From positions 39,781 to 103,780 of the forward strand of contig CAYJVR010000006.1 in NCBI GenBank assembly GCA_964373715.1: DNA of 64,000 nt, given 5' to 3'. The notes under the pieces are model-generated. The model had not been told where the DNA came from. It did no database searches and saw nothing but the letters and a program-made list of their open reading frames with translations. This DNA is from an uncultured Planctomycetia bacterium (GTDB taxonomy: Bacteria > Omnitrophota > Gorgyraeia > 1-14-0-20-64-10). Both the position numbers and the translations under genes were made by a program. Shown here piece by piece: positions 31,749 through 53,142 of this stretch. Positions within the stretch are counted from its first letter, which is position 1. Each line of letters begins with the position of its first letter.

Positions 31749-31822
31749 GCGGCACCTCGCTGACTACAGGTTGAATGGATGACTTCGCCGAAACGGGTTA
31801 TTGTAGCAACCGCCTCAAACTC

Positions 31823-31852
31823 TTGTCAAACCTCATTCTCTCGTGCTATGAT
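31823..31852 (+). promoter_or_regulatory. Candidate sigma70 promoter for dnaA (TTGTCA-N18-TATGAT)
   Basis: Hexamers read in the rpmH-dnaA intergenic region, about 45 nt upstream of the dnaA ATG. Confidence 0.4.
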
Positions 31853-31894
31853 TCCAGCTTGTTCACATCAACCTAAGGAAAACCGTTTCTTCCC

Positions 31895-33274
31895 ATGGAG
31901 TCCCTGGATCTCAAGTTGTGGGATCGAGCACTTTCCCGCATTCAAAACGAATTACCGAGCCAAGCCTACGAAACTTGGTTTCAGCCGACGAGGGCCGTCT
32001 CGTCCACTTCGGACTCACTGGTTATCGAGGTCCCTAGCCCTTTTTTCCGGGACTGGCTGGCAAGCCATTATTCGGAGCTCATAGGCCGGATGCTTAGGGA
32101 TCTAGCAGAATCCAAAGTACGCGTTGAGTACATGGTGTCCCTTCAACAGCGCCAAGCTCCGGAGGAAGAACGGCTGCCTGCCATCTCGCCCCGCTTGCCG
32201 GCAGCCGCAACATACAGCAGCCCAGACAAAGCTGGGGTATCTCCTTCAGATATGGTTTTAAACCCTCGCTACACCTTTGAGGAATTCGTCGTTGGGCCGT
32301 CCAATCGATTCGCCCATGCAGCAGCTCTCGGAATCAGCGAATCTCCGGCGAGGGTATATAACCCTCTTTTTATTTATGGCGGCGTAGGTTTAGGGAAAAC
32401 GCATTTGATGCAGGCGATAGGGCATCGCCTGCGTGAGCGTTTTCACCAAGGGACGTGTATTTATATCTCGAGCGAACGGTTCACTAACCAGCTTATCACT
32501 GCCATTCAGAACAGATCCATGGGGGCATTCCGGGAACGGTTCCGGTCCGTTGATGTTTTAATGGTGGATGATATTCAATTTATCAGCGGAAAGGAGTCCA
32601 CCCAGGAGGCTTTCTTTCACACGTTCAACGCTCTTTATGACGCACACAAACAGATTGTTCTCTCCAGCGATCGCCTTCCGAAGGAATTGCGCGGCCTGGA
32701 GGAACGGTTGGTATCCCGTTTTGAGTGGGGATTGGTGACGGACATCCAACCTCCCGATTTAGAAACAAGGGTTGCCATACTCCGCAAAAAAGCGGAAGCT
32801 CAGGGACATCCAGTTCCGGATGAGGTGACTCTTTTTATCGCCGAGAAAATCTCTTCCAACATCCGTGAGCTGGAGGGGGCCTTGAATAGGGTCATTGCCC
32901 ACTCTGTTTTGATAAGCCGCGACATCTCTCTTACTATGGCGCAAGAGGTGCTGCGCGGTATGGTGGCTGAAACAGCGCGAAGAGTCACGCTAGACCGGAT
33001 ACAGAGGGTGGTGGCCTCCCATTTCAATTTAACCGTTACTGATCTTCGCGGAAAGCGCCGAACGAAAGAGATTTCTTTTGCCCGGCAAATAGCTATGAGC
33101 CTTGCCCGTGAGCTGACGGAGGCCTCTCTACCCTCTATTGGAGAAGCTTTTGGGGGGAGGGATCATGCCACCGTAATTTATGCTTGCTCCAAAATCGCAA
33201 ATGAAAGAAAATCAGGTGGTAAGATACGGCAGGTTTTAGATAGTCTCTTGTTAGAACTAAAGAAAGATTTGTGA
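31895..33274 (+). CDS. dnaA: Chromosomal replication initiator protein DnaA
   Basis: Domain I, the AAA+ domain (GGVGLGKTHL) and the DnaA signature HTH domain IV. Confidence 0.95.
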   Translation: MESLDLKLWDRALSRIQNELPSQAYETWFQPTRAVSSTSDSLVIEVPSPFFRDWLASHYSELIGRMLRDLAESKVRVEYMVSLQQRQAPEEERLPAISPRLPAAATYSSPDKAGVSPSDMVLNPRYTFEEFVVGPSNRFAHAAALGISESPARVYNPLFIYGGVGLGKTHLMQAIGHRLRERFHQGTCIYISSERFTNQLITAIQNRSMGAFRERFRSVDVLMVDDIQFISGKESTQEAFFHTFNALYDAHKQIVLSSDRLPKELRGLEERLVSRFEWGLVTDIQPPDLETRVAILRKKAEAQGHPVPDEVTLFIAEKISSNIRELEGALNRVIAHSVLISRDISLTMAQEVLRGMVAETARRVTLDRIQRVVASHFNLTVTDLRGKRRTKEISFARQIAMSLARELTEASLPSIGEAFGGRDHATVIYACSKIANERKSGGKIRQVLDSLLLELKKDL

Positions 33275-33463
33275 GTAATTTGTTAATAACTCTGTTTGAG
33301 TGGGTGTTTTGTTGAATCTGTTGGTGTTTTTGGTTGGTTATCAATAGGGGGTTATTGAATCTAAGTTGTTTATTTTTGGTGTGTTGTGTTGTTATTAACA
33401 GTTTTAACAGGTCTTATTATTGTTGTTACTAACTTAATAAACATAATGTAATAATAAGAGACA
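33275..33463. other. AT-rich dnaA-dnaN intergenic region (roughly 28% GC against a roughly 62% background), a candidate oriC/DNA-unwinding element with degenerate DnaA-box-like 9-mers
   Basis: The composition drop is visible directly. TTATCAATA and two copies of TTATTAACA (one on each strand) resemble TTATCCACA. TTGAATCT occurs twice. Its position between dnaA and dnaN is canonical for oriC. Confidence 0.5.
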
Positions 33464-34561
33464 ATGAAAACCATACTCTCGAGAGATGTTCTTCTAAAAG
33501 GCATCCAAAATATTTATCCGGTTATACCTAATAAAAGCACACTCCCCATTCTGTCGCATATTCTCCTGGAGGCAAAAAAAGACTCTCTATTTTTGGTTGG
33601 TACGGACTTGGAGATTGGAATTTCCTGTTCTATACTCGCAGAAGTGCAAGAAGAGGGGGCTATCGCTGTTCCGGCGAAAAGACTTTTTGAGTTAGTCAAA
33701 GAACTGCCAAACACATCCCTACATATTCATGCGAAGAAAAACCAGCAAATCACACTTGAATCAGAAAAAGGCCTATTTAAAATATCGGGGCTTCCAAAAG
33801 AGGAGTTTCCTCGCCTTCCACGCGTCGAGAATCAAGACGCCCTGGTGATTGACCAGAGGGTTTTAGAGGCCATGTTTTCACAAACAGCATTTGCCGCTTC
33901 ACACGATGAATCCAGATATATTCTCACAGGTATTCTTTTTGTTTCAAAGGGCGGGTGGTTGCGACTTGTTGCGACGGACGGCCGGCGCTTAGCGTCTGTT
34001 GCGCGCGAAGCGCGCACCCCAACAAAAACAGATCACCAGGTTGTGGTACCAGCCAAGGCAATACAGGAACTCCACCGTCTTTTAGGCGACGGGCCGTCAG
34101 TGAAGATCTCCATCAAAGAAAACCAGATAGCTTTTGATTTAGGAAACATACAGCTTATTTCTAGGTTGATTGAGGGGAAATTCCCGAATTACGAACAGGT
34201 TATCCCGGCAGAGTCCCCCCAAAAACTGGCCGTATCGAGAGAAAATCTGCTTTTGGTCACAAAACGGATCGGCCTTTGGACCACGATTGACTCACCCTCC
34301 ATACGTTTTGACCTGCGGCCCACCAACATTGTTGTTTCAAAGCAAACTCCGGAAGTTGGCGAAGCCCATGAAGAGATCCCGGCGACGTACAATGGGTCTG
34401 AATTTTCAATAGGGTTCAATCCCGCTTATTTGGTGGATGTTCTAAAAACGCTGCCGGACGAAAGTGTGGAAATGGAACTGCCAGGCCCGGATCGCCCCGG
34501 CGTCATTCGGACAAAGGACCATTACTTGTATATTGTTTTGCCGATGCAGTTAAATTCATAA
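33464..34561 (+). CDS. dnaN: DNA polymerase III beta sliding clamp
   Basis: Three-domain clamp, 365 aa, with full-length similarity. Confidence 0.95.
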   Translation: MKTILSRDVLLKGIQNIYPVIPNKSTLPILSHILLEAKKDSLFLVGTDLEIGISCSILAEVQEEGAIAVPAKRLFELVKELPNTSLHIHAKKNQQITLESEKGLFKISGLPKEEFPRLPRVENQDALVIDQRVLEAMFSQTAFAASHDESRYILTGILFVSKGGWLRLVATDGRRLASVAREARTPTKTDHQVVVPAKAIQELHRLLGDGPSVKISIKENQIAFDLGNIQLISRLIEGKFPNYEQVIPAESPQKLAVSRENLLLVTKRIGLWTTIDSPSIRFDLRPTNIVVSKQTPEVGEAHEEIPATYNGSEFSIGFNPAYLVDVLKTLPDESVEMELPGPDRPGVIRTKDHYLYIVLPMQLNS

Positions 34562-40815: not shown

Positions 40816-41262
40816 CTATGAGCGAACGTCTAAATCCTCCGGCCCATCGCGATACCCTGAACCCACCGGCGCCAGCATCTTTTCGCAAATAATGCATTGA
40901 CCCAGATTGGAATACATCACTTTACAGTGAGCGCAGCGGTAATTGTTCTTGGCCACATAAGCGATGTATCCGGCCTGCGCAATCGCGCGGATAAATTGTT
41001 CGGGGTCGGTTTTAGCCGGATCGAAAAAGATCACAGCCACTTTGTCCGGAGTGCTGGCCTCTACGGATTGCACTCCAGCAATGGAACTCACCGCCCCCTT
41101 TATCGTCATCTCACAGTTGGCGCATCTCATGCCAGCAATATCCAGAGTAACCGATTCGACGGGGGTTTTAGCTGAAGCCGAAACAGGCCCCAGAGCCAAT
41201 GCCGCGACTACGACGATTATTGCCATCAAAGGTTTCAATAGAGATGTCCCTCCCATAGTCAT
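40816..41262 (-). CDS. Secreted heavy-metal-associated (HMA) domain protein with an extra Cys-rich C-terminal tail (periplasmic metallochaperone-like)
   Basis: Signal peptide, a GMRCANCEMTIKGAV (MxCxxC) ferredoxin-like HMA fold, and additional CAHC...CIIC cysteines. Confidence 0.7.
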   Translation of the reverse strand: MTMGGTSLLKPLMAIIVVVAALALGPVSASAKTPVESVTLDIAGMRCANCEMTIKGAVSSIAGVQSVEASTPDKVAVIFFDPAKTDPEQFIRAIAQAGYIAYVAKNNYRCAHCKVMYSNLGQCIICEKMLAPVGSGYRDGPEDLDVRS

Positions 41263-41373: not shown

Positions 41374-44300
41374 TTACGCGGCGGCGCCAAGAGCCTGAAG
41401 ATCATCGGAGAACTCTTCCAAACCGGAAGAGACAACTTCCGAAGGAACTCCAAGGACCTTAAGAATTTCTTGGACCAACAGGGTGAAGGACCAGCCCGTC
41501 GGATCGTGAGCGATAAAGCCCAGTTGAGCGCGACCGGCCATGCTTCCAAAAAGCGTAGCCTCTTCCGATTCCCCGTAGAAGTGCACCGCATCGCCCCGTT
41601 CAGCCACGCGCGTGATGGTGTCAGCAGGATCTCCGCGGTCAATGACAATCCGGTTATTCCAGACGGCGGCCAAAACCTGAAGCCCAGGGAATTTTTGTGC
41701 GAGACTCTGGCCGATAACAATGACCCATGTGGAGTCTGGCAGGCTGACAGACCGGAAACCGTCGGCTTGCTCCTGTGCCCTGCTGAAGAGGGCGACGGGT
41801 TCCTCCAGACCGGCCGATTTTTTGGCAACCAGGAAGAACCAGTTTCTGGGTAATGTTTGAAGACCCAGTTCAGCCATGGCCTCCGTCACGGCGTCGGACA
41901 AAATCTTCTGCCGGTCCGCAAGCGGGATATCGAACGGGAGCAGCTGATCCGCCACCACGGGTACTTGCACGAAATCCCTCAGGGCGGCGGTTGTAAGAGG
42001 GACGGTTCGCGTCTCTTCTTCCACAATGGCGAAACCTGCCTGCTCGATGAGGTCTCGGTATTCGCGCTGTGAGAGGGTGCGTAGGCGTTTTCGGCTAACC
42101 GGCGGAGCATCCGGAAAGGATTTTTCTAGAGAGACTTTGGCTTTGTCGGCGATTGCGAGATAAACCCGCATAGACTCGGGGGGGACTGATTCTTTCGTGA
42201 AAGTGGTGTTGAAACCGAAAAGCTGACCGGGAGCCAACTTGGCGGAAACCTCTTTGGCAAGCAAAGAGGAATCTCCCATCAGATGGATGGAATTGAACAG
42301 CACCACCGCATTCGGGTTTTCCGGCACAAGCTCTCTAAACTTTAGGGCATCACCCGCGCGGAATTCGACAATTCCGCGGAAAGAATCCGAAATTCGTCCT
42401 TGGGCTTGAATCGCCATACTTTCCGACAGATCAACGCCGATCACTTTCCCAGTCGATCCCAGAGCTCTCGCGACAAGAAAACTTCCACTGCCAGTTCCGC
42501 TGCCGAGGTCCACCACCGTTTGGCCATTGCCGAGCCCGTTCCTCGTCAAGAGATCGACCAAATGCTGGTTTGCCTGTCCGTATTCCGGATGAGCGGCAAA
42601 ACGGGCATAAGATGGCCCCGATTCCGGCTGGTCCCATACGGAACCTTGAGCGGGAAGACCTTCCTCCAGGCCGGCTCTGCCCTCGAAGACCTTACGGACA
42701 AGATCGAGCCTTTTGCGATCGCGGGCGATCGCGTAGATCTTCACGTTGCCCGGGCCGGTGATGACCGGCTGAAGGACCAACCCCGCCCGGCTCGCGGCTT
42801 TTTGAAACCGTTTCGGGTCAAGGTTCGGGGAGGCGAAGGCCCATTCTCCAAGGATCGAATTGTCCCAGGGCAAAAGGAACGCGATCCCGTCCGGGGCGAG
42901 AACCGTTTCCACCGATTGGATGAACCGATCCGCCATATCGAGATTAGCCGTGTTGGAAAAGACCACGTCGAACAGTTCCCCCTGAACGGGGGTAAAAAGA
43001 TCCCCTTCCAACAGAGTGACACGGTCCGACAGACCCAGCCGCGCAACCGCTTCGCGCCCTTTCACGAGGTAGGCACCCTGAATATCGGTTCCTACACCAC
43101 GGCCCGCTCCGGCAATATCCACCGCCGCCGAGACGACGTAACCGTAACCAGTTCCGATTTCCAACACCCGCTTCTGTTTGATGAAAGGGGCTGCCATATC
43201 AACGGCTGTGAGCATCAAATCAACGGTGGTTTCTGTGGAAAGAGGCGGGTTCTCGGAAAAATACCGGTCCCAGAAAACCTGCATCCGTTCCGGCAGAGGG
43301 ATACCGTTGACCGGCCATAGGACAGGATCGTTCAAGGAGGGTGGGAATAAACGGTTGTTGAGCGATCTGCCGAACGATTGTCCGAAAAGAACCCCGAGAA
43401 ACCCTTCGCCGGTGACGTGCGGTTTCGGGTTTCCTTTGAATGCGTGCCACGCAAGGCGCTCGCCGGTGGGCCGGGACGGGTGCCGGTACAGACCGGAGTC
43501 TTCAATGATCAGAATTTTGTTTTCCCACACCGCGGGGTCGTAGGGCTCCATATAGTTCTTTTGTGTTTCATAGGAGGAGAGGGGAGCGGTGATGTTGGCG
43601 TAATAGATCACCTCTGCGGAGGCCGCGAAAACCAGATAGCCGTTGACCGCCGCGGCCTGCGCAATCGCTTCAACCGCTTTACGCCTCCAGCCGTCCATCT
43701 GATGCCGGTGCTTGCTATTGATCTCGTGATAGCCGTCGGAGGGCTGAACTTCCTCGATCAGGAGGGCCAATTGGTCTTCCTCAGTTTTGTACCTGCTCAG
43801 CGCGATTTGCCCGAATGATCCGGCGTTCGGGTAGGCGGCTGATGGAGGCTGCTTGTTCAAAACGGCCAGCCACGGAAAACGGGCAAAGGTCTCTGGAGTC
43901 GGTCCGACTTGAAAAGTGTGAAAGGCCAAAAGATCCGAGCTTGCCGCCACCTCTTCGTATTTTTTGACGTGCTGAAGAGTCGCTTCCACCTGGCCCTCGA
44001 GAGAGCCGGTTCCAACCTGGAGACGGGTGTTGTTCAGCCAACCGGCGAGTTTTTTGGAAAGAGCGTTGTCGAACGGGACCGGTTTCAGCGTGAGAGGGAA
44101 AGGTTCTTCGAGACCGCCGCCGGAGGCCGGCCGGCGGACAGCCGGAGAGATGCTGAGGACTTCCATGGGGATGAATTTGCCCTTTCCGATCTCCACGGTG
44201 ACCAAGCCGTTTTCCGACAGATTGGCAACCTCTGCGAGAGCTTCTCTTATTTCCTGCGTAGTTAGGTCATCGCCCGATAATCCGTGCCTCGATACGGGAT

Positions 44301-47300
44301 CCGTTCCGTTGAAAAACTGGAGCCGTGGCGTTTCTCCGGCATGTTTCTTCTCTTGGATATAAAGCAGGATTTTCACCAGCGCATTGTCGAAAGACAGCTC
44401 CTCCATACCACCCTGAAACGCGCCGTGGATCGCCTCCCAGATCCAACCCCGCTCCTGGTCCGCGATCTGCAGTTTTTCTTCCGCCGAGCGCCTCATGAAT
44501 TCATCGAACAGGGATTCCTTCGTCGAAAAACCGGCCTGCTTCAAGGCCAGCACGAATTCCCAGCGGGCCAGTCCGACATCCGGAAGCGGAGGGACGGTGT
44601 TGTCTTCCAGCTGTTGAGTTCTGCGGATCCGCTGGATCATCAGGTTGATGCCTGTTGTTGCCGACAGCGCGGAGACGTATTTCCGCCATCTCTGCTCGAC
44701 TTCCTCCGTGCCGGCGGGACGGAGTTCGATGGCGGAGGATCCGGTCCGGACCACCTCGAAGAGGATATCCGGGGCGCCGTAGTTCCTCACAACCTCAACA
44801 ATGTCGGAGGCAACTTGACCAGCAGTCAGACCCATAGCCAATGAATAATCCACGCTGTTAACGAGAGCTCCCTTGGGGAAGTTAACTCGGATCGAGGTGG
44901 TTCCTTTAGCTTTCCAGGCAGGAATCTGTAGAGCCAACCATTCCTCGAGTTCCCCGATGCGTCCCTGATGAAGAACCTCCTCCGTTCCGGCGGAGAGATT
45001 CTTTACCCGAAACAGCCGGTCCGGCGCCCGAACGAAGCCGGAAGCTGATTGGTCCAGCAGTTGATGAAAACGTTCGGGAGTGGTAAGCATTATCTGGATC
45101 TGCTCCCCCTGCAGAGCGGCGGGCACCGCCTTCGGATCTTCTCCGAACCGTTTTCTCAGCGCTTCGACAAGAAGGTGGAGGTCATAGGTGCCTTGTAAAA
45201 GTCCGCGCACCAGTTCCCGGCCGGCCGGCGTGATCGAAATAGAGATTGGATCCGGCGTGTTGTAGACATAGGCGTATGGATTGAATTGATCGACCGGGAA
45301 GGAATAGCTGTCTGCCGGTTCCGGACCGACCCAAGGCCGCGCGTCGAACGCAGTGACCAGCCCCTCTCCCGAGACGAACAGGAGCAGCAGATCCCCCGCT
45401 TCGGAAGGGTTGAGCGAACCGGCCCGTTCGGTGAGCGGCGCAGGCAGTGCACGGTTCCCCAAGACATTTACGGGAAAGGTTGTTTCTTCTAAGCCGGTGG
45501 AGGGAGGGGCTTCTTGAGGATCGAGCCGACGGAAAGTGATCGCGATGTCTTGACTCCGCAAAACAATGTTGCTTGAAGCGATCTTGGAGCTCCACATCTC
45601 ATAGATTCCGACAGCATCAGTAGGGGCGACCGCCTCCAGCAGAGATAACTTCCATTGCTGCTTGGCGATTGCCCCCTCCAGTTTCTCTGCGTACGGCTGA
45701 ATGATTGCCTGAGCCGTATCGATCAGCCAGCGGTATTCCTTTTCGGGTATCAACTTGGAGATAGGGACAAAACCTCTAGGTGCCAGGGCGTCTCCCCGTT
45801 CTGCCAGGGCGTCCGATAAGCCCTGGATTTGGCCATCCTCGGACAGGACGAGTTTAAAAAGCAAACCGTTCCGCAACACCCTCTGAGGAAGTCCATGCTG
45901 CCGATAATAGTCGAGCCCATGAATCACGTCATAATAGACATGAAGATGGATCCACCAAGCTTCTCCAGCGCCCCTGACCAGCGCCCAGTGGGGATTAAGA
46001 ATGGTTCCGGTTGTCGACCGCCGGAATCCCGTGTCAAAATCGACAAGACTTCCAAAACCCCACCATTCGTTTAGACCATCCAAGAGCTGTTTTTGAACAA
46101 CAGTTCTGATTTGATCGACATAACGGCCGGAATTTAAAGCTTCCTCCTGTCCGGCGGATCCAGGGTTCTCGATCGGGGGTGACAGCACGGCGGTTTGGCG
46201 TGTTTCGTCAATAACCAGCTGCAGCCAGCCCCCCTGCTGCAGCGACATGGCTTGCGACCAAATTTTCTGCTCGGGGAAATGAGGACCTTTCAGTCGGGAG
46301 GGTTTTCCTTTCGGTTGCATGAACACAACCTCCGTCACTTTCGGAGAAGTGCCACTGGTTGCCTGAAGGATTGCCTGAACCGCCTCGTTGATGTAAATAT
46401 TTTCTGGAAGCGTTTTTTGGGAAGCAGTTGCCAGAAGTTGATTCAGCATCCGGATTGAAAGTTTATGGGCCGATTTTCGCGCCTCCCGGAAAGCAGGTGC
46501 CAGCTCCTTGCCCTGCCGCATGACCGGGTAAAAGGTAATTGTCCGATCTGGATGGATGAGGAAGAAGCTCCGGCTTTCCAAAGGAAGAGGCCACCAGGCG
46601 CCTTGCTCGTCAGAGCGGGCCAGAATCCGGTACTTTTCAATTCGGATTTCTATGGTTTTCAAAGCTGCTTCTGGATTATCCGGGTCGGCATACCCGATTC
46701 GGGCAGGTTCCCCCCGCTCTGAAAGAATCGTCAGCAGTTTCCGAGCTTCGGCAATCCTCAACCAGAAAGGAGGCTGTGTTTCTGCAGACAGAGGAACCCG
46801 CATACGCTCTTCTTTCCCGGCGGTAGGGCCGGGTTCTGGTGTGAGGCCGGAGATGCTTTGTGTTTGTTGCTTGGAGGCGTTGAACCACTGGAGTTTGGGT
46901 TCCAGCGTGCGCGGTCCTATGCTGAAACCGACGTAGCCTTTCGCCATCAGCGCGGCGGCATTTTCCGTTTTGACTCCGCCGGCGCTCCCGAACACGCGGA
47001 TGTGGGACAACGCCGCGTCCCCCGCCATCCGTTCAAGAAGAGCCGCCGTTTCCCCTGCGGTTATCCCGGGTCCTACGGCAGGCTCCACCTCGATTCCCTG
47101 TGCTCCGGTTAGTTGTGCGGTTTCCACATCGGCCCAATCCCGAACCTTTGCAATGACGAGAATTTGGTTATTAACGCCGGTCTTTGCGGTTTCCAGAACC
47201 ACCTCCCCAATAACAGAAACCGGCGCGCTGATGATCAGGTTGCGTCCTTGGGCGGAGGAAACCACCGAAGGGACTTGCGAGGCCTGATAAATGGCAACGC

Positions 47301-49422
47301 CGACCACGGCATTTTGGTTCTTGGTTCGCAGCTGGCTGAGGGCCTGAAGGCTGAGCGCATCATCAATCCCCCGGATGTCAATCTTAGGAATAAGACCGCT
47401 TTCCAGCACCTGTTGAGCGAACTGAGAGATAAAGTCCGGACTGGCGTTTGCCGGGTAGTCTGCCTGATCCCTCCAATTGATAAAGCCGAATCCGCGATAA
47501 TTTTTGAGTTCTTCTGCCAGAGATTTCGCCGTTCGGGCCGAGGTTTCCTCCAGGCCGGCGGTCGTCTCATCCTTGGCGGCAGGCGGCGGCTGAGGCGGTG
47601 TCCAGCGGTAGGTTTTCAGGAAGTGATATTTTTCCATCGTCTCGGCGGCGGTAACCTTCGGGTCCCAGCTTCCGCCGAATTGTTTTTCGGCTTTCTTGAG
47701 AAGGTTGTTCACAACGCCGCTTTCAAATGCGGTGCTGTAAGTCGGAAAGTGGTCGGCATTTCGGCCGACGGAAACTGTCAAAACCCCGACCGCCACTTGC
47801 AGGCGGACGATCACCTCATCCATCGGGGAGCCTAGCGAGAAGACCGCGGCCGACGCGTCCGGGTGGGGCAGTTCATGGAAGAGGTTCCGCGTGTCCTTCG
47901 CAAACCGGTCTCGGATATGGTCGGCAAGCCAGGTTTTGACCTGTTCGGCCGAGGATTCCTCCAGCCCGGCGGAAACGCCGGACCTTTTTCCCCAGGATGA
48001 AATGAAATCAGGCCGGTGTTTCAGGAATCCGTCGATGGTTCGACGAACTATCTGTTCTACAACCTCAGCAGGGGCGTCCGGTGGAACCTCCCGAACGAAG
48101 GATTCGAATCGGCAGCAAAAGGTGGGGAAGAATGCTTGCAGCACCGCATCTCTTGATCCGGCCGGCTCCGCCGCGTAAGCGAGAAGGAACCGATACACCA
48201 GTTGAGCCCAAAGCTCTTCCGACAAGTGAAGTTGTTCCGGCGAGGCACCATGAAGCTTCTCGAGTTCTTGAAAGAGCGCTTCCCCCACAATCTTTTTGAT
48301 CGCCGCTCGGTCTCCAGCAAAATACTGCCGGAACATTCGGTCGTAAGTCATTGCCAGCTCATCCGGCTTCCGGAGGGTGCTGATGTTCGGAGCGGGGATT
48401 CCTTCGCCGTCCTGCGGAATCTTCAAACGAACCCAAGAATCGCTGTTTGCTAAAACTGATTCAAACAACACCCGAAAGATTTGGATGTCGTTCTTGCGAA
48501 GACCCTCGTCCTGATCCATGCGGTCTGAGGTGTGCAGCAATTGGCCCAGGGGGGGCTCGTAAAACCGCACCTTGTTGAGCAGCAAATTCTGGGTCAAAAC
48601 CAGGTCTATGCCATACCCGGAGTAAACCTCGTGTCTCTCCAAGTTTTGCAGATAGGTGCTTAAGCCGTGGATCACGTCCGCCGTCATGGCCCGTACCCCG
48701 CTGAGCGGGTGCCGAGGCGCCTGGCCGTAAATGGCGGAGAGCAATGGGTGGATAAGATGATTGGTCACTTCCGCGTCGTGAGCTAACCGCTCAACGTTCG
48801 GAATCGCGCAACTGTTAGAACCGGCGGAAAGGACGGGGTCCAGAGTGATTTTCATCCATTCGGGGGTTATATTTGTGATGTCCGCATCAAAGTAAGCCAT
48901 GTGGGCGTTCTTATCAGAGGAGACATCGATAAAGGCTCGTACGCTCCACCCTTTTCCCCGCAAGCCGGTCGGCTTCTGAAAACTACTGTAAGCTGTTTTT
49001 GGCGAGCCGTTTGGGAGAACAGCGCTGATTTCGACGGGGGAATCGGCCTCCCCTATGGCAAGAACAAGGAATCGGGTTTTGGGGTAGAACCGTGTAAGCC
49101 CTTGCTCAATTTGCTCCAAAAGGTTCCCCACCGTTTGAGTCAATTCGCGGGAAAACGGTATGCCGATTACCACGTCTGCCGGATAGGTGCGGAGGGCCTC
49201 CCGCGTTTTTTCCAGAAAATCCTGATATTGGTGCTCCGCCGTTCGGGCTGGGGGTTCCTCCAGACCGGTGGAGAGTTTAAGAAGAGTCGTGGCCAGCTCG
49301 CCGGCGATAGCCCCCTCCGGCGCGGCTTCAGGCCGAAGAGCGCATGCCGACGGAGGCAAGGCAAGGCTGACCGATAGAAGAGCGGATAGAATTCTTCCGT
49401 ATAAAGGAAAGGGATTTTTCAT
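41374..49422 (-). CDS. Giant multi-module protein (2682 aa from MKNPFPL, or 2706 aa from the track start). After an N-terminal signal/anchor it carries a GT-A glycosyltransferase-like module, a TIM-barrel-like module, several unknown modules and two class-I SAM-dependent methyltransferase modules. Ten AG[L/T]EE motifs punctuate it.
   Basis: A single uninterrupted 8.1 kb ORF. MTase motif I occurs twice (VLEIGTGYGYV, and VVDLGSGTGSGSFLV with GVDLSESM). The GT-A-like region shows DVVIGIPFSRE ... YFDADITN. The TIM-barrel-like region shows HIRVFGSAGGVKTENAAALMAKGYVGFSIG. GLEE/GTEE motifs sit at aa 77, 510, 647, 1334, 1502, 1595, 1794, 2275, 2562 and 2691. Confidence 0.85.
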   Translation of the reverse strand: MKNPFPLYGRILSALLSVSLALPPSACALRPEAAPEGAIAGELATTLLKLSTGLEEPPARTAEHQYQDFLEKTREALRTYPADVVIGIPFSRELTQTVGNLLEQIEQGLTRFYPKTRFLVLAIGEADSPVEISAVLPNGSPKTAYSSFQKPTGLRGKGWSVRAFIDVSSDKNAHMAYFDADITNITPEWMKITLDPVLSAGSNSCAIPNVERLAHDAEVTNHLIHPLLSAIYGQAPRHPLSGVRAMTADVIHGLSTYLQNLERHEVYSGYGIDLVLTQNLLLNKVRFYEPPLGQLLHTSDRMDQDEGLRKNDIQIFRVLFESVLANSDSWVRLKIPQDGEGIPAPNISTLRKPDELAMTYDRMFRQYFAGDRAAIKKIVGEALFQELEKLHGASPEQLHLSEELWAQLVYRFLLAYAAEPAGSRDAVLQAFFPTFCCRFESFVREVPPDAPAEVVEQIVRRTIDGFLKHRPDFISSWGKRSGVSAGLEESSAEQVKTWLADHIRDRFAKDTRNLFHELPHPDASAAVFSLGSPMDEVIVRLQVAVGVLTVSVGRNADHFPTYSTAFESGVVNNLLKKAEKQFGGSWDPKVTAAETMEKYHFLKTYRWTPPQPPPAAKDETTAGLEETSARTAKSLAEELKNYRGFGFINWRDQADYPANASPDFISQFAQQVLESGLIPKIDIRGIDDALSLQALSQLRTKNQNAVVGVAIYQASQVPSVVSSAQGRNLIISAPVSVIGEVVLETAKTGVNNQILVIAKVRDWADVETAQLTGAQGIEVEPAVGPGITAGETAALLERMAGDAALSHIRVFGSAGGVKTENAAALMAKGYVGFSIGPRTLEPKLQWFNASKQQTQSISGLTPEPGPTAGKEERMRVPLSAETQPPFWLRIAEARKLLTILSERGEPARIGYADPDNPEAALKTIEIRIEKYRILARSDEQGAWWPLPLESRSFFLIHPDRTITFYPVMRQGKELAPAFREARKSAHKLSIRMLNQLLATASQKTLPENIYINEAVQAILQATSGTSPKVTEVVFMQPKGKPSRLKGPHFPEQKIWSQAMSLQQGGWLQLVIDETRQTAVLSPPIENPGSAGQEEALNSGRYVDQIRTVVQKQLLDGLNEWWGFGSLVDFDTGFRRSTTGTILNPHWALVRGAGEAWWIHLHVYYDVIHGLDYYRQHGLPQRVLRNGLLFKLVLSEDGQIQGLSDALAERGDALAPRGFVPISKLIPEKEYRWLIDTAQAIIQPYAEKLEGAIAKQQWKLSLLEAVAPTDAVGIYEMWSSKIASSNIVLRSQDIAITFRRLDPQEAPPSTGLEETTFPVNVLGNRALPAPLTERAGSLNPSEAGDLLLLFVSGEGLVTAFDARPWVGPEPADSYSFPVDQFNPYAYVYNTPDPISISITPAGRELVRGLLQGTYDLHLLVEALRKRFGEDPKAVPAALQGEQIQIMLTTPERFHQLLDQSASGFVRAPDRLFRVKNLSAGTEEVLHQGRIGELEEWLALQIPAWKAKGTTSIRVNFPKGALVNSVDYSLAMGLTAGQVASDIVEVVRNYGAPDILFEVVRTGSSAIELRPAGTEEVEQRWRKYVSALSATTGINLMIQRIRRTQQLEDNTVPPLPDVGLARWEFVLALKQAGFSTKESLFDEFMRRSAEEKLQIADQERGWIWEAIHGAFQGGMEELSFDNALVKILLYIQEKKHAGETPRLQFFNGTDPVSRHGLSGDDLTTQEIREALAEVANLSENGLVTVEIGKGKFIPMEVLSISPAVRRPASGGGLEEPFPLTLKPVPFDNALSKKLAGWLNNTRLQVGTGSLEGQVEATLQHVKKYEEVAASSDLLAFHTFQVGPTPETFARFPWLAVLNKQPPSAAYPNAGSFGQIALSRYKTEEDQLALLIEEVQPSDGYHEINSKHRHQMDGWRRKAVEAIAQAAAVNGYLVFAASAEVIYYANITAPLSSYETQKNYMEPYDPAVWENKILIIEDSGLYRHPSRPTGERLAWHAFKGNPKPHVTGEGFLGVLFGQSFGRSLNNRLFPPSLNDPVLWPVNGIPLPERMQVFWDRYFSENPPLSTETTVDLMLTAVDMAAPFIKQKRVLEIGTGYGYVVSAAVDIAGAGRGVGTDIQGAYLVKGREAVARLGLSDRVTLLEGDLFTPVQGELFDVVFSNTANLDMADRFIQSVETVLAPDGIAFLLPWDNSILGEWAFASPNLDPKRFQKAASRAGLVLQPVITGPGNVKIYAIARDRKRLDLVRKVFEGRAGLEEGLPAQGSVWDQPESGPSYARFAAHPEYGQANQHLVDLLTRNGLGNGQTVVDLGSGTGSGSFLVARALGSTGKVIGVDLSESMAIQAQGRISDSFRGIVEFRAGDALKFRELVPENPNAVVLFNSIHLMGDSSLLAKEVSAKLAPGQLFGFNTTFTKESVPPESMRVYLAIADKAKVSLEKSFPDAPPVSRKRLRTLSQREYRDLIEQAGFAIVEEETRTVPLTTAALRDFVQVPVVADQLLPFDIPLADRQKILSDAVTEAMAELGLQTLPRNWFFLVAKKSAGLEEPVALFSRAQEQADGFRSVSLPDSTWVIVIGQSLAQKFPGLQVLAAVWNNRIVIDRGDPADTITRVAERGDAVHFYGESEEATLFGSMAGRAQLGFIAHDPTGWSFTLLVQEILKVLGVPSEVVSSGLEEFSDDLQALGAAA

Positions 49423-49659: not shown

Positions 49660-52600
49660 ATGGCGGTGAAATTGAAAAGAAAAAAAGAGGTTTTCTTGAT
49701 TCCCCGTTTGTTGGCAGCGTTTCTGATTGCCTGCCAGGTCGTTTCAGGTACACCTACTTTCTCACGCGCTGAAGTACCGAATCCCTCTGCCGCGACTCTG
49801 CGAGCCACCATCGAAGGTTCCACCGAACCGAATCTCCGGCATCTTTTCGGGCTTCCGTCTGCCTCCGTCGCGCCGTCTGCTGGTTTGGAGGAATCGCTCG
49901 GGTTTACCCGAAAGATCTTTCTTTATTTGACGGCGGCCGGGTTGCTTTGGGCGGGGGCCAACGGTCTTACAAACATCCCTGTAGGGGCTATCGCCCAGGA
50001 TAAAAAGCCGGCCGTGGAATTCGTTCTTCCGAAAGAGGTGGGTAAACCGTGGGATTCCCTGTTTAAGACAGATCCCAAGAGCAAAGCGATCCCTTTCCGC
50101 GCTTCGGACACCTTTTTCCAGGTTGGGTTGGTCCGGGCGGATGATCCGACGCGGGGTTTTTACTGGGATTTTTGGGCGGTTGAGCCGGATGGGACATCCA
50201 TAGGCAGAGTTCAAACCGCCCAGGATGGTGGTTGGCGGATCGTGAATCCGGGGACGAACGACACGATCGGTGCCCTCCATTTTGGCCTCGCGAATAATTT
50301 TACGATTTATGACCGGTACGGCAAACCAGTTTCCCAAAACCTGAGCGTTCTTGCTCCCGGGGAGAAAGCCCCTCCAGCCAAAGACCCGATACCTATTTAT
50401 ATTGTCCTTGCGCGGGGCGGAGACGGCAGTCCCACCAAAGTTCAGCCCGATCCGATCGGATACATCCAGGTGAGAGAACGGCTTCTGCTTAACCAGGACA
50501 AAAAGCCTATCGCCTTGATCCGACCGGCGACCTTAATGACAAAAGGCTTCCAGGAAAACAGCCACCCTTTTTATCTCGACGGCGTTTCTCTGACGTATGA
50601 TCTTTATACAGCGGATCCGTCTCCCGGGCTCCAGAAAAAGCTGCAGGAGAGGCTTGACGCCATGAAACCGGATTCGTTGCCGGGGAAAATAATGAAAGCC
50701 CAACTGGCTGTCCGCTTGATACAGGTGGATCTTCTTCTTGGCGAGAAAGGGAGCGGAAAATTCGCCAAGGCGGGGATATTACCGGAAGAGGCGAAAAAAG
50801 CCGCCGATGCCCTGGCGGTGGAGCGCCTACCGGTCCTTAACGATTTAGGCAGGAAGGAGAGTAGACAGCTCATTTGGCAGGCAATCGAGAATGCCGATCC
50901 TCTATATCGTCTTTACTCCGAGGGGGTTCGGCTTGCCGGCTACCGGGACGACCGGGAGGTTTTGGAGCATATCTTGCTGACTCAAAAAGTCATTTGGGCA
51001 GGTTGGGGGGCCCCGCACGTGAAGGCAGACGCCGCCACACCGCTTCAAGACTGGATGCGGGATATCCTGGTGGACAGTTTGCGTTTTCAGGCGATACGCA
51101 CCCCGGAAGAGGCGATCCAGTTGACATCGGAGGTGCTGTTGGCTCCGGGCGCGGAATTGGTCCGTCAACGGAAACAGGATGTTTGGCTGAAGGATCCTTG
51201 GCTGAACAGAACAGATCGCGTTCTTATCCTGCGGGCCAAGAGACAGTTTGGGGCGTTTGACAAAGCGGTTCATCAGGCGGCCGCGCTTCACAGGGCCGGC
51301 TACCCGGTCAGCTTCTGGAGCCTGTTGGTGCATAAGCAGATGGATGATAACACTAAAACGATTGTGCAGGAGACCCTCGTGGTTGCGGGGGATAAAGAGG
51401 GCGGGAAAAAGATCACCATTTTGGGAGCCGACAGCGTGCTGGGTGATTTGGGCGGGAAAAAACTTGAGAAGGGGCTTTACCAATTTGAATCGATAGACTC
51501 GCTGAAGAACCTGCTCGAAGAGCGCGGGGAGTACCGCATGACGCTGGAAAACGCGGCGGCGGCGAAGACAACCATGCCGGCGTGGGCCAATGAGCTTCGG
51601 AAACCGATCGACTATAATCACAAGAGTTGGGATGCGGCAGGACAGCCTCACCGGGATCCCCTGCTCAACTGGATCTTTTTCGACCATAACGTGGATCCGT
51701 GGTTTTCGTTTACCAGGGAGAGTTTTGATAATTCTCGAGAGTTGGCCCGGGCGTTTGCCAAAGGGATGGAGAAGCATAAGATCGCTCTGTACATACGGCA
51801 GAAGAAAGACGGCGGAAAAACAGAGGATGTCGCCGTTGAAGATTTGGCCAAAAGAGAAAAGGCGCTGATTCTCACAAAGCACGAAGCGGTCCTGGGCAAG
51901 GCCTTCCAAACGCTGCCGGGTAAAATGTTCAGCGGGACGCGGAAATTCACGCTTCAGGAGGAAGCTCCGCTAAAAAAGGTTCTGCAGGCTGAAATCCGTG
52001 GCGACAAAGTGGTCCTTGTTGAAAGAGACTCTGTCGAAGGGGGCCGGGCGGACAGCCGGGAGGTCTCTTTATTTTTTGCCGGGTATGTTGAGGCGGTCCA
52101 CGAGATGATGCACCGGTGGGCGTTTGCCCGCGGGGATGCGTTAAGCGGAACATTTAAGATCGGAGAATGGACCGGCAACATGGTAGATCCATTTAATGAC
52201 ATCTCCTGGAAACAGGGTGAAGACAAACGATGGGTCCGGCGCAGCGACAAGATCAACTTGATTGATTTTGGCTGGGAGTACGGGGCGACCAACCAGGATG
52301 AGGATATCGCGGTCACAGGGCAAAGGTATGTCGTCCAGGCCCCTGAGGTTCGCCGGATAGCGAGAGGTGAGCTGAGAAACGGGAACCTGGTTCCGGCGGT
52401 TAAGTACCTCCACATGAAATACATCGCTTTCCTCGACACCGACGGCAAGAGTATGGAATACGATTTGGCCGGAGGGGAGATGCCGTTCGCGATGGATGAA
52501 TTTGAGAAAGGGGTGAAGGCCCTGAAGAGACCCCTGACCGATGAGCAGCAGAGGCTTTTGGATTTAGCCAGGAGGATACACCAGTTGTCACAACATATGA

Positions 52601-53142
52601 AAGAGAATAAGAAGATCAGCCAGGCCGCGCCGGGCAGCACGGACCTTCCGGCGGTTGTAGAGTTTCAGAGGGACTTGTCTGCGGCGGATCGGTTGGCCAT
52701 CTTTGCTGAGGCGGCGCGGGGCCCCGGTGTCGTCGTTGTTCAGGCGAGCACCCTTGCCCGCCGCGCCGGCTTGGAAGATTTTATGCTGGCGCTTCCGGCC
52801 GACTTAAAGAGCAGGATTATTCTTTTCGGCAAAGAGAGCGCTGCCGCTAAAAGGATTGCGGCCCGCGCTGGGATCACCCTTGTGGACAGCGATGAACTCA
52901 CCGATCTGGCAGTCGCGCTTTCGAGTTTGTGGCAGGCGGATCAGGTTGGCTTTATCGGCGATGCCGATAAAGCGCGTCTCTTGGCGGCGATGCTTCAGAG
53001 AATGAACATCAGCTTGTTTTCAATGGATCCGGACGTGGCCCTCGGGAAGATCCTGCTTTCCCTCGGGATTCCCGGCACCGTTCTTGACCAAGTGGATATT
53101 GGCGGGCTTGAAGAAGAGCTCGGCCGCCGGCGCTTCGCGTAA
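49660..53142 (+). CDS. Large (1160 aa) signal-peptide/lipobox protein with an HExxH (HEMMH) zinc-metallopeptidase-like motif. It carries the same AGLEE motif after its N-terminal hydrophobic segment (aa 73-78) and at its extreme C-terminus (aa 1148-1152), plus AGLED at aa 1036-1040.
   Basis: Uninterrupted ORF. LIAC lipobox. HEMMH lies at nt 52099..52113. No other family is recognised. Confidence 0.75.
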   Translation: MAVKLKRKKEVFLIPRLLAAFLIACQVVSGTPTFSRAEVPNPSAATLRATIEGSTEPNLRHLFGLPSASVAPSAGLEESLGFTRKIFLYLTAAGLLWAGANGLTNIPVGAIAQDKKPAVEFVLPKEVGKPWDSLFKTDPKSKAIPFRASDTFFQVGLVRADDPTRGFYWDFWAVEPDGTSIGRVQTAQDGGWRIVNPGTNDTIGALHFGLANNFTIYDRYGKPVSQNLSVLAPGEKAPPAKDPIPIYIVLARGGDGSPTKVQPDPIGYIQVRERLLLNQDKKPIALIRPATLMTKGFQENSHPFYLDGVSLTYDLYTADPSPGLQKKLQERLDAMKPDSLPGKIMKAQLAVRLIQVDLLLGEKGSGKFAKAGILPEEAKKAADALAVERLPVLNDLGRKESRQLIWQAIENADPLYRLYSEGVRLAGYRDDREVLEHILLTQKVIWAGWGAPHVKADAATPLQDWMRDILVDSLRFQAIRTPEEAIQLTSEVLLAPGAELVRQRKQDVWLKDPWLNRTDRVLILRAKRQFGAFDKAVHQAAALHRAGYPVSFWSLLVHKQMDDNTKTIVQETLVVAGDKEGGKKITILGADSVLGDLGGKKLEKGLYQFESIDSLKNLLEERGEYRMTLENAAAAKTTMPAWANELRKPIDYNHKSWDAAGQPHRDPLLNWIFFDHNVDPWFSFTRESFDNSRELARAFAKGMEKHKIALYIRQKKDGGKTEDVAVEDLAKREKALILTKHEAVLGKAFQTLPGKMFSGTRKFTLQEEAPLKKVLQAEIRGDKVVLVERDSVEGGRADSREVSLFFAGYVEAVHEMMHRWAFARGDALSGTFKIGEWTGNMVDPFNDISWKQGEDKRWVRRSDKINLIDFGWEYGATNQDEDIAVTGQRYVVQAPEVRRIARGELRNGNLVPAVKYLHMKYIAFLDTDGKSMEYDLAGGEMPFAMDEFEKGVKALKRPLTDEQQRLLDLARRIHQLSQHMKENKKISQAAPGSTDLPAVVEFQRDLSAADRLAIFAEAARGPGVVVVQASTLARRAGLEDFMLALPADLKSRIILFGKESAAAKRIAARAGITLVDSDELTDLAVALSSLWQADQVGFIGDADKARLLAAMLQRMNISLFSMDPDVALGKILLSLGIPGTVLDQVDIGGLEEELGRRRFA

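Follow-up and report, generated by a model that had tools for sequence, protein, structure and literature searches.

The stretch of DNA analysed here (64,000 nucleotides; hereafter the window) carries on its minus strand the gene of a large multi-domain protein (the megaprotein) and, divergently transcribed from it, that of an HExxH-containing partner protein already named in a preliminary description of the sequence (Table 1). The megaprotein locus is chromosomal, proximal to oriC and syntenic with the P0027 locus. As described before, the minus-strand ORF is uninterrupted. Its longest in-frame reading starts from an ATG at 49494 and would give 2706 aa, but an extension to this codon is unlikely; the ATG at 49422 is the start in the NCBI record, places a signal peptide at the N-terminus, and is preceded just upstream by AAGG and an AT-rich promoter-like stretch. 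The amino acid positions in the preliminary description had been counted from 49494 and run 24 ahead of the gene coordinates given there; its nucleotide positions for the motif discussed below stand in all cases but one, 44980-44991, which should read 44977-44988 (3 nt off).

The N-terminal signal peptide proposed earlier has the n-h-c layout of the Sec type, as read from the sequence, and Kyte-Doolittle analysis showed that it is the sole hydrophobic segment of the megaprotein, with no internal transmembrane helices. It carries a family signature, LP(S/P)PAxA-LR (hyphen, end of the signal peptide), which is also found in P0026, P0040, P0041, P0052, the L001 edge gene and the L007 downstream gene.

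Table 1 Features of the megaprotein gene and its neighbour (window coordinates; aa positions of motifs refer to the core Gly)
Feature	Coordinates	Strand	Remarks
Megaprotein CDS	41374..49422	-	2682 aa + stop; stop codon within coordinates, at 41374
Sec-type signal peptide, aa 1-29	49336..49422	-	MKNPFPLYGRILSALLSVSLALPPSACA-LR
Module aa 53-485	47968..49266	-	GT-A-like glycosyltransferase region (DAD motif) + helical region
Module aa 486-622	47557..47967	-	Fold without match; recurs in P0027 (63% identity), module order differs
Module aa 623-868	46819..47556	-	Earlier 'TIM-barrel-like' region
GNAT-fold domain (domain X), aa 1788-2000	43423..44061	-	Hallmark common to 34 relatives
SAM methyltransferase 1, aa 2066-2181	42880..43227	-	MTS/PrmA-like
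SAM methyltransferase 2, aa 2286-2468	42019..42567	-	Separate gene in orthologous genome
C-terminal domain, aa 2538-2682	41377..41811	-	Homologous to C-terminal domain of HExxH neighbour
Motif 1 STGLEE, aa 53	49255..49266	-	
Motif 2 SAGLEE, aa 486	47956..47967	-	
Motif 3 TAGLEE, aa 623	47545..47556	-	Orthologue homology breakpoint
Motif 4 TAGKEE, aa 869	46807..46818	-	Degenerate
Motif 5 SAGQEE, aa 1091	46141..46152	-	Degenerate
Motif 6 STGLEE, aa 1310	45484..45495	-	
Motif 7 SAGTEE, aa 1479	44977..44988	-	
Motif 8 PAGTEE, aa 1571	44701..44712	-	
Motif 9 GGMEE, aa 1672	44398..44409	-	GGLEE in orthologue; flanks unusually conserved
Motif 10 GGGLEE, aa 1770	44104..44115	-	Directly before GNAT-like domain; P0002 alignment begins exactly here
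Motif 11 RAGLEE, aa 2251	42661..42672	-	Orthologue homology breakpoint
Motif 12 SAGLEE, aa 2538	41800..41811	-	C-terminal domain start; homology breakpoint
Motif 13 SSGLEE, aa 2667	41413..41424	-	12 residues from C-terminus
Left copy, ~35-nt imperfect direct repeat	49234..49269	-	AGLEE + xxARTA; flanks aa 53-623 block
Right copy, ~35-nt imperfect direct repeat	47524..47559	-	Flanks aa 53-623 block
Partner protein	49660..53142	+	1160 aa, divergently transcribed; signal peptide
Partner SAGLEE, aa 75	49882..49893	+	N-terminal
Partner HEMMH, aa 814-818	52099..52113	+	HExxHRWA in 40%-identical orthologue
Partner YGATNQDEDIAV, aa 874-885	52279..52314	+	Candidate third-zinc-ligand segment; conserved as FAATNPHEDIAV
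Partner RRAGLED	52768..52779	+	Degenerate; opens its C-terminal domain
Partner GGLEEE	53104..53115	+	Bounds C-terminal domain; not conserved in g897

Modules of the megaprotein

Pfam analysis of the megaprotein gave matches above the curated threshold to Methyltransf_31 (76.6 bits) and Methyltransf_25 (72.9 bits), with two matched stretches each, in agreement with the two class-I SAM methyltransferase modules described before. The second of these gives a strong Pfam match, while the first is borderline when taken alone (MTS, 22.7 bits against a cut-off of 23) and the orthologous domain passes with 37.8 bits. A profile search of every inter-motif segment, proposed in the preliminary description, gave nothing credible in Pfam at E values up to 10, and PDB sequence searches with the megaprotein returned methyltransferases only. 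Pfam and NCBIfam revealed no protease domain in the full megaprotein, and Pfam none in the single inter-motif segments.

The earlier assignment of a GT-A glycosyltransferase to the first module is moderately supported. The module matches the N-terminal 446 aa of P0006 (BLASTP, E = 8e-38), and is homologous to the N-terminal part of GT+GH130 proteins. FDAD is present in the module, and its best Foldseek matches are GT2, GT81 and GT78 enzymes (E from 2e-5 to 1e-2), albeit with low TM-scores and from a low-confidence AlphaFold model (aa 40-880; pLDDT 46.5 for the whole model, 60-83 over this module). For aa 623-868, previously read as TIM-barrel-like, Pfam and PDB sequence searches gave zero matches, and the AlphaFold model of aa 480-880, built from a patchwork alignment, has a pLDDT below 40.

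Structure prediction gave a GNAT fold for domain X with a pLDDT of 90. The catalytic activity of this domain is uncertain, because the Pfam GNAT profile has no match in this region and its conserved loop reads QP(G/S)DGY(R) instead of the canonical acetyl-CoA-binding Q/RxxGxG/A. A joint HMM of the C-terminal domain recovers the megaprotein, P0026, P0042, the HExxH neighbour, g807 and g897 (E from 3e-48 to 4e-64); when HMM searches with this sub-lineage's C-terminal domain were iterated, no link emerged to the C-termini of proteins with other motif classes.

A short motif recurs at the module boundaries

The tenfold recurrence of a GLEE/GTEE core reported earlier was reproduced, and three degenerate copies (GKEE, GQEE and GMEE) were added to it, giving 13 copies of [S/T][A/G]-G-x-E-E in the megaprotein. 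The ten copies of G[LT]EE compare with 0.16 expected from composition and with a maximum of three in 5000 shuffles. Among 13 housekeeping proteins of the same window (7918 aa), used as the control set, 4-mer copy number reached a maximum of four, and scanning about 140 kb from six loci in all six frames confined [AGST]GLEE to the megaprotein-family set and one YidC. These enrichment statistics, together with the conservation across genomes and the tags of other lineages described below, including a simulation of tag placement before GNAT-fold domains, lead us to rule out that the motif is a product of chance, composition or low complexity, a view for which only the shortness of the motif speaks and whose probability we regard as negligible.

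Alignment of the copies is sharp over A-G-L-E-E and the flanking residues are without constraint. The copies are located in linkers, 13-36 residues upstream of the first structured element of a module, as well as after the signal peptide and before the C-terminal domain. Internal translation starts behind the motif were rejected, as no conserved start codon follows it. Sorting signals of the sortase LPXTG and exosortase PEP-CTERM types were likewise excluded, since several internal copies of the motif exist and the C-terminus lacks a hydrophobic helix; type IV prepilin signals, double-glycine (C39) leaders, graspetide core motifs and CheR-type methylation sites were rejected too, because the flanks that they require are missing or the resemblance is only partial. 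A phage prohead-protease site ([SAG]-x-E) was set aside on account of the chromosomal, syntenic position of the locus next to oriC.

Homologues break and reshuffle at the motif

Word-indexed homologue searches with the full megaprotein and with its neighbour recovered only the query itself, P0002 and close orthologues, so that the relatives described here come from an exhaustive profile search. A scan of genome contigs recovered the P0002 contig alone, and a metagenome scan with a narrower alignment gave three loci.

In the syntenic orthologue of the megaprotein (79% identity), shared homology blocks break exactly at AGLEE. G-x-E-E is unchanged at 9/9 sites, with the x residue varying, and is kept at all three degenerate copies, while the upstream linkers show substitutions and indels (identity of 39/45 in the motif core against 124/180 in the flanks). 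Homology blocks shared between the megaprotein and P0026 start and end on the motif. The distant homologue P0002 contains six AGLEE, and its alignment with the megaprotein begins at GLEE in both proteins. Modules are reshuffled in P0027 and in g807, again following AGLEE, and the module behind SAGQEE (motif 5) turns up again behind AAGLEEE in g807 of L009. One module stands alone elsewhere, as the preliminary description had suggested looking for: in L007 the methyltransferase 2 module is a gene of its own that encodes a separate signal peptide, and SGLEE and FGKEE still bound the module. Single-module proteins, e.g. P0040, run from signal peptide through AGLEE, domain and GLEE to a tail, a layout that counts against a pure inter-domain linker role of the motif. 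The position equivalent to motif 13 is not conserved in g897 or g807. These comparisons, along with the analogous tags described below, strongly support the earlier view that the motif is placed at module boundaries and is conserved as protein.

Other Omnitrophota lineages carry different tags

A profile of domain X led to 34 relatives, of which P0002 (contig), P0027, P0033, P0046 and P0050 are recorded as Candidatus Omnitrophota. These names, along with the synteny to the P0027 locus, point to the same phylum for the genome of the window. Besides domain X, the relatives contain NUDIX, HEAT, HATPase_c and SecA-like domains, glycogen synthase and phosphorylase. Different tags, namely RSELR, GFGA, KPGSSDME and KPEAPDMA, are over-represented in other lineages, with top 4-mers of RSEL (14 against 0.36 expected), GFGA (7 against 0.09) and PGSS/SDME (7 against 0.06). 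The tag of the respective lineage lies 0-40 aa upstream of the domain in 19/27 GNAT-domain copies, compared to 3.0 expected, and 0/200000 simulations reached 19. None of the RSELR copies falls within a recognised domain (glycogen synthase, phosphorylase, NUDIX, HTH), and paralogue breakpoints coincide with GFGA and KPEAPDMA too. The giant relative L005 (at least 6775 aa) has no strong tag.

These tags bear on the possibility that selection sees a nucleotide-level signal, either a recombination site or microhomology for cassette shuffling, or GGAGGA as an internal Shine-Dalgarno-like pause aiding co-translational folding. A direct repeat of about 35 nt that includes AGLEE brackets the aa 53-623 block, and the orthologue has one copy of the repeat without the block; the first Glu codon of the motif is GAG in 37/50 motifs against 56% overall, which creates the GGAGGA core; and block breakpoints meet tags in three motif classes. 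However, synonymous positions vary, as had been noted from the start: all four Gly codons and six Leu codons (CTG, TTG, CTT, TTA, CTC and CTA) are used, and the second Glu codon is GAA in 25 motifs and GAG in the other 25. The x residue changes with G, E and E fixed, the motif is absent from the other reading frames, and RSELR, GFGA and KPGSSDME cannot encode a Shine-Dalgarno-like sequence. We regard a nucleotide-level signal as improbable; microhomology may still aid shuffling as a by-product.

The fused enzymes might instead modify the motif, e.g. by methyl-esterification of Glu, or by acetylation or methylation of a nearby residue. EE pairs are targets of CheR-type methylation, and pairs of GNAT and PrmA/HemK-like methyltransferase domains recur in the megaprotein, P0002, P0026 and P0044. 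Against this stand the HExxH neighbour and g807, which carry the motif without any methyltransferase or GNAT domain, and the tags of other lineages, which have no Glu pair; the boundary placement of the tags would also be left unexplained. We judge a modification site to be very improbable.

The HExxH neighbour

The partner contains a conserved HExxHRWA and ATNxxED(I/L)AV, with a conserved Glu about 63 residues downstream of HExxH, and its segment YGATNQDEDIAV may resemble the TNxxE segment of anthrax lethal factor. It gave zero Pfam, NCBIfam or PDB matches, even when a three-sequence profile was used against PDB. Its relatives are confined to close genomes that share this locus and were not found in more distant AGLEE carriers. 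Because it is conserved only in close relatives, the neighbour is at best a weak candidate for a processing protease.

A putative polyprotein

Several independent functional units share a single ORF, and a conserved motif lies wherever two of them join, which is one of the features of a polyprotein. We propose, at about even chances, that the motif acts at the protein level to delimit the modules of a Sec-exported Omnitrophota multi-enzyme protein, most likely as the site of an endoprotease, which would make the protein a bacterial polyprotein. The gene would encode a Sec-exported modular precursor with a GT-A-like region, a GNAT fold, two SAM methyltransferases and several folds without match, in which [S/T][A/G]-G-x-E-E would delimit every module under selection at the protein level. 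Modules have been gained, lost, swapped or split into their own genes at the motif during evolution. A lineage-specific endopeptidase would recognise the tag and cut the exported precursor into single enzymes, and RSELR, GFGA, KPGSSDME and KPEAPDMA may play the same role at equivalent boundaries in other lineages. The excess of the motif, its boundary placement and conservation, the analogous tags, the module shuffling and the signal peptide sequence are results of the analysis; that the protein is exported, that it is cut at the tag and which protease would do so are inferred. A point against the proposal is that enzymes depending on SAM, acetyl-CoA and NDP-sugars would be without cofactors outside the cell, and their export would be sensible only if the products act in the cytoplasm of another cell.

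Further observations speak against the proposal. In one gene the motif lies only four residues past the predicted signal-peptidase site, so that an extra cut there looks redundant; orthologues of the neighbour do not conserve its C-terminal GLEE; and L005 has no strong tag. The main rival is an uncleaved short linear motif, either a per-module address tag that docks a common partner (scaffold, chaperone, or export or delivery machine) or a hinge in a tethered chain. The tag precedes the first module, just 4-25 residues past the signal-peptidase site, and occurs in single-module proteins, exactly the pattern expected of a per-module tag; moreover, Pfam, NCBIfam and PDB searches of the megaprotein and its neighbour found no protease, and the giant relatives have been proposed to be surface-associated assemblies (10.1101/2023.11.21.568195; PMC10066038). 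On the other hand, the strict 4-5 residues, the free flanks and the wholesale replacement of the tag imply a partner that co-evolves in each lineage, which is equally needed of a protease. We consider docking or a hinge unlikely, though well worth keeping beside the endoprotease site.

Comparison with known systems

The preliminary description recognised no described bacterial system in this architecture, which has to be corrected, since Candidatus Omnitrophota are already known for multi-enzyme megaproteins and the protein is one of these. For giant proteins of this phylum, post-translational cleavage has been hypothesised, with information on the cleavage points being absent (West-Roberts et al. 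2023 preprint, 10.1101/2023.11.21.568195; Seymour et al. 2023, PMC10066038); delimiter motifs are not mentioned in these published accounts, and literature searches for the AGLEE and RSELR strings gave nothing relevant. The megaprotein is related to the Archaeovorin-type giant proteins, though small, and does not count as a giant by the measure of those papers. Both come from the same phylum and share a like mix of domains (glycosyltransferase, methyltransferases and GNAT here; NUDIX, HEAT, HATPase_c and SecA-like domains in relatives of the megaprotein), mostly unannotated sequence and a suspected cleavage into several products. Archaeovorin-type proteins, however, exceed 30 kaa and have many transmembrane helices, compared to 2682 aa and one N-terminal hydrophobic segment, and a C39 or S8 peptidase domain was not found in the megaprotein.

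Similar to the polyproteins of picornaviruses, potyviruses and coronaviruses, unrelated enzymes are encoded on one ORF with a short lineage-specific junction consensus that differs between lineages under a constant architecture. Unlike these, the megaprotein is the product of a cellular, chromosomal, oriC-proximal and syntenic gene without a recognised embedded protease, and is a putative polyprotein only. In MARTX and large clostridial toxins, an internal domain with cysteine protease activity cleaves the inter-effector linkers and so frees an array of effectors. These toxins resemble the megaprotein as large secreted proteins with swappable modules, exchange between strains and a need for host-cytoplasm cofactors, although processing and secretion are putative here; they differ in having a type I secretion signal instead of a Sec signal peptide and a single Leu delimiter instead of a strict five-residue motif. 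RTX repeats and a C80 cysteine protease domain are absent from the megaprotein (Pfam and NCBIfam, E up to 0.1). In cyanobactin precursors of the PatE type, each core lies between recognition sequences, for example G(L/V)E(A/P)S. Repeated short sequences around cassettes that are shuffled between relatives are common to both, but the precursors comprise tens of residues and are processed by the subtilisin-like PatA/PatG, whereas the cassettes of the megaprotein are whole enzymes of 90-480 residues.

Significance for Omnitrophota

Candidatus Omnitrophota stand out by their giant or mega-sized ORFs for multi-enzyme proteins, which have raised the explicit question of whether each product works as a single chain or is divided into many proteins. 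The lineage-specific boundary tags provide a first candidate map of possible cut sites, a hypothesis open to proteomics, and a practical rule for dividing megaproteins into units for structure prediction and annotation. The tags are also where modules move as cassettes from one gene to another, and this would account for the evolution of such architectures. Should cleavage be confirmed, Omnitrophota would have cellular polyproteins of a scale for which viruses are otherwise the only known example. A broader reading, advanced tentatively and with more doubt than confidence, is that all Omnitrophota megaproteins, the giants of 10-100 kaa included, may be true polyproteins, with a co-evolving protease and junction motif in each lineage, exchange of cassettes, and cofactor-dependent products meant for a host or prey cell. 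Should this be the case, the motifs would form a readable map of the mature products, and methyltransferases, GNAT proteins, glycosyltransferases and even glycogen synthase and phosphorylase would be released for use at or inside the host or prey cell.

A recurrent, sharply defined motif in a probably exported protein

The minus-strand ORF ending at 41374 is uninterrupted in the window; its longest reading begins at 49494 (2706 aa), and the ATG at 49422, the start in the NCBI record, yields a protein of 2682 aa (the megaprotein) with a canonical n-h-c signal peptide at its N-terminus (MKNPFPLYGR-ILSALLSVSLAL-PPSACA↓LR) and with an AT-rich promoter-like stretch and AAGG directly 5′ of it. Residue numbers in the preliminary description are 24 higher because they were counted from 49494. 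Signal peptides of the AGLEE class have a common c-region, LP(S/P)PAxA↓LR(P/Q/R/S), seen here, in the loci L001 (1-230(-)) and L007 (13607-13700) and in the homologues P0040, P0041 and P0052; the predicted mature N-terminus is therefore Leu-Arg, and the c-region may be a signature of export or processing particular to this family.

The tenfold recurrence of G[LT]EE noticed earlier stands, with 10 copies against 0.16 expected from composition and a maximum of 3 across 5000 shuffles. Additional same-frame copies (TAGKEE at 869, SAGQEE at 1091 and GGMEE at 1672) bring the total of [S/T][A/G]-G-x-E-E to 13. All nucleotide ranges first assigned to the copies are correct except 44980-44991, which is 3 nt off and should read 44977-44988. 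A logo of 23 instances from four proteins gave a sharp A-G-L-E-E core and essentially unconstrained flanks, and no 4-mer exceeded four copies in 13 housekeeping proteins of the same window. Across ~140 kb (six loci, six frames), [AGST]GLEE is confined to the tagged protein set and one in-frame AAGLEE at the end of the periplasmic domain of YidC, for which roughly 0.04-0.1 would be expected by chance, so that it may be a coincidence. At each position of the motif the synonymous codons differ between copies, in line with the variation described earlier. In the window, L001, L007, L009 and L010, the first Glu is GAG in 37 of 50 instances (56% overall), which after a G-ending codon gives a Shine-Dalgarno-like GGAGGA in most copies, and the Ala at -1 almost never uses GCG (1/27, about 30% overall).

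Pfam and NCBIfam recognised two class I SAM methyltransferases in the megaprotein and nothing else, bearing out both modules first proposed, and a PDB sequence search agrees. The proposed GT-A glycosyltransferase-like region is moderately supported by 28% identity (E=8e-38) with the N-terminal portion of GH130-bearing proteins of ~1190 aa, by an FDAD motif and by top Foldseek matches to GT-A glycosyltransferases; the AlphaFold model behind these matches is poor (pLDDT 46.5 for the whole and 60-83 within the module). No Pfam or PDB match was found for the putative TIM-barrel-like region, where pLDDT is <40.

Features of the window and of the megaprotein
Feature	Window position	Residues	Remark
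Megaprotein	41374-49422(-)	2682 aa
Signal peptide	49336-49422(-)
GT-A-like module		82-479	moderately supported
TIM-barrel-like region		~640-846
GNAT-fold domain		1788-2000	common to relatives
Methyltransferase 1		2066-2181	MTS/PrmA/HemK-like, borderline
Methyltransferase 2		2286-2468	strong match
~35-nt direct repeat	49234-49269 and 47524-47559(-)		12-nt exact core
HExxH neighbour	49660-53142(+)	1160 aa	divergent; signal peptide, SAGLEE at aa 75, HEMMH
HMA protein	40816-41262(-)
yidC	29475-31013
AAGLEE in yidC	30162-30173(-)	about aa 281
GC-skew turn	31000-34000		near 32-33 kb

The motif at module boundaries

Several independent homologue comparisons indicate that the motif marks module boundaries, as the preliminary description had claimed: a distant homologue, orthologue block ends, a module split off as a gene and reordered modules all agree. 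The sole distant full-length homologue from a word search, P0002 (2071 aa, Candidatus Omnitrophota bacterium), carries six AGLEE, and its alignment with the megaprotein starts exactly at a GLEE of both. The syntenic orthologue P0026 in L007 (79% identity) has three collinear blocks in common with the megaprotein (1-80, 621-2256 and 2537-2682) whose ends fall on AGLEE (motifs at 53, 623, 2251 and 2538); it lacks the two modules of motifs 53-623, and other modules stand where the megaprotein has methyltransferase 2. That module is a separate downstream gene in L007, with its own signal peptide and flanking tags kept (…NPALA↓LRP…SGLEE, the module, KKSFGKEE), so the question raised earlier, whether some relatives encode modules separately, is answered by an example. 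This tagged gene (13607-15202, truncated by the contig end) begins at the stop codon of the megaprotein orthologue and holds another methyltransferase-like region besides the methyltransferase-2 module.

G-x-E-E is invariant at 9 of the 9 sites common to the orthologues (identity 39/45 in the motif core vs 124/180 in the flanks), while x and the upstream Pro/Ala/Gly-rich linkers vary or have indels. In the more distant syntenic genome (L009), modules occur in another order: P0027 holds megaprotein aa 490-637, within a larger motif-bounded module, and the GNAT-fold domain, the neighbouring gene g807 holds aa 1127-1296, and AGLEE directly precedes both the GNAT domain and the g807 module. Single-module proteins such as P0040 consist of signal peptide, AGLEE, GNAT domain, GLEE and tail. 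Outgroup proteins with GT and GH130 have neither signal peptide nor motif.

A ~35-nt imperfect direct repeat (core GCCCGAACGGCG), encoding AGLEE-xx-ARTA, brackets the 1.7-kb block of modules aa 53-623. In the orthologue only one copy is present and the block is missing, a pattern suggesting that recombination at the tag inserted or deleted it.

Unrelated tags in sister lineages

An exhaustive search of 1.84 billion representatives with a profile of the GNAT-fold module returned 34 proteins, many of 2-6.7 kaa; those bearing names are annotated Candidatus Omnitrophota. Their domains (methyltransferases, GNAT, NAGPA, HEAT, NUDIX, HATPase_c, HTH arrays, protein kinase, Trypsin_2, SecA-like, glycogen synthase and glycogen phosphorylase) match the Archaeovorin-type repertoire of Omnitrophota giant proteins. 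De novo 4-mer enrichment found one strongly over-represented short tag per large member, depending on lineage.

Lineage-dependent tags
Tag	Count vs expected	Proteins
GLEE/GQEE	GLEE 8 vs 0.11 (P0001), 6 vs 0.11 (P0002)	P0001, P0002, P0026, P0027, P0029, P0042, P0044
RSE[LV]R	RSEL 14 vs 0.36	P0033, P0036, P0046, P0048, P0056
GFGA	7 vs 0.09	P0047, P0051, P0053
KPGSSDME	PGSS 7 vs 0.06	P0057
KPEAPDMA	PDMA 3 vs 0.02 (P0050)	P0043, P0050

The own-lineage tag lies 0-40 residues upstream of the GNAT-domain start in 19 of 27 copies (3.0 expected; reached in 0 of 200000 simulations). RSELR brackets NUDIX, the GNAT domain, the HTH array, glycogen synthase and phosphorylase and has no copy inside recognised domains; GFGA and KPEAPDMA likewise coincide with homology-block breakpoints between paralogous megaproteins. 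The phenomenon is not universal, since L005, a 20.3-kb locus spanned by a single ORF of at least 6775 aa that includes the GNAT-fold domain, has no strongly over-represented short tag.

These data bear on a nucleotide-level role of the motif DNA. The mild GAG bias creating GGAGGA and the direct repeat speak for it; synonymous variation, changes of x and the inability of other lineages' tags to encode a Shine-Dalgarno-like sequence make it quite improbable.

Typical cytoplasmic proteins (glycogen synthase, glycogen phosphorylase, SecA-like ATPase, NUDIX hydrolase and HTH DNA-binding arrays) are embedded as tag-bounded modules in P0048 (4860 aa), P0031 (2913 aa) and P0056 (2267 aa). P0032 (L006 9437-12433, 988 aa) combines a GNAT-fold domain with a Trypsin_2 serine protease domain (His, Asp and GDSGSP present) that immediately follows LLGLEEK, a possible lead to the class of the putative processing enzyme. 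A terminal Ala ends 27 of 35 family proteins of all motif classes (P0001, P0004, P0026-P0057), often as -AA, -FA, -SA or -QA; an HMM did not link the C-terminal domains of different classes as homologues.

The locus and its HExxH neighbour

The megaprotein locus adjoins dnaA, dnaN, dciA, gyrB and gyrA, a position syntenic in three genomes. Cumulative GC skew turns with yidC, parA and parB on the opposite side; with these genes, the turn places the chromosomal replication origin in the window, the remainder of which is housekeeping. The gene immediately downstream of the megaprotein encodes a small exported HMA (heavy-metal-associated) protein that carries an additional Cys-rich tail (CxxC…CxxC) and is missing at the equivalent place in L007 and L009.

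The partner HExxH protein named earlier is present and belongs to the tagged set: its C-terminal domain, between RRAGLED and GGLEEE, is homologous to that of the megaprotein. Its L009 orthologue (40% identity) keeps HExxHRWA and (F/Y)(G/A)ATNxxED(I/L)AV, a spacing reminiscent of the segment that supplies a zinc ligand in zincins of the lethal-factor or MtfA-like type; Pfam, NCBIfam and PDB-sequence searches gave no support for this likeness, and no relatives were found beyond the three syntenic genomes. Its candidacy as the processing enzyme is weak. In L009 (1891-7301(-), GCA_023818545.1), two tagged proteins, g807 and g897, replace the single neighbour; the N-terminus of g897, annotated just before SAGLEE, is probably mis-called because the stop-to-stop frame reaches about 80 aa further upstream.

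Possible function of the tags

The motif, a sharply defined protein-level feature of five residues, occupies linkers that precede modules, follows the signal peptide and surrounds the C-terminal domain. It is kept while linkers drift and is replaced by unrelated tags in sister lineages, and the tags are where modules are inserted or deleted, change places or become genes of their own. The favoured reading, at about even odds, is that a lineage-specific endopeptidase would recognise the tag and cut the exported precursor into separate enzymes. The main rival, an uncleaved docking or address tag for each module, seems rather unlikely; its best argument is one gene with the motif just four residues past the predicted signal-peptidase site. 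A modification site is very improbable, as it leaves the boundary position unexplained. Every reading that relies on export carries the caveat that enzymes dependent on SAM, acetyl-CoA or NDP-sugars would find no cofactors once out of the producing cell, which suggests action inside another cell; this would fit the predatory or parasitic lifestyle proposed for the phylum.

In its proposed mode of action the megaprotein would be comparable to viral polyproteins and to effector arrays of the MARTX type, but is a member of neither because no RTX repeats, C80 domain or embedded protease were found by Pfam and NCBIfam. It fits best among the Omnitrophota Archaeovorin-type multi-enzyme proteins (West-Roberts et al. 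2023, 10.1101/2023.11.21.568195; Seymour et al. 2023, PMC10066038) as a small relative that does not share the size and transmembrane features of the giants. Post-translational cleavage has been proposed for Omnitrophota giant proteins, with cleavage-point information explicitly said to be absent, and the Omnitrophota and giant-protein papers examined make no mention of such delimiter motifs. The tags offer a testable map of candidate cleavage points.
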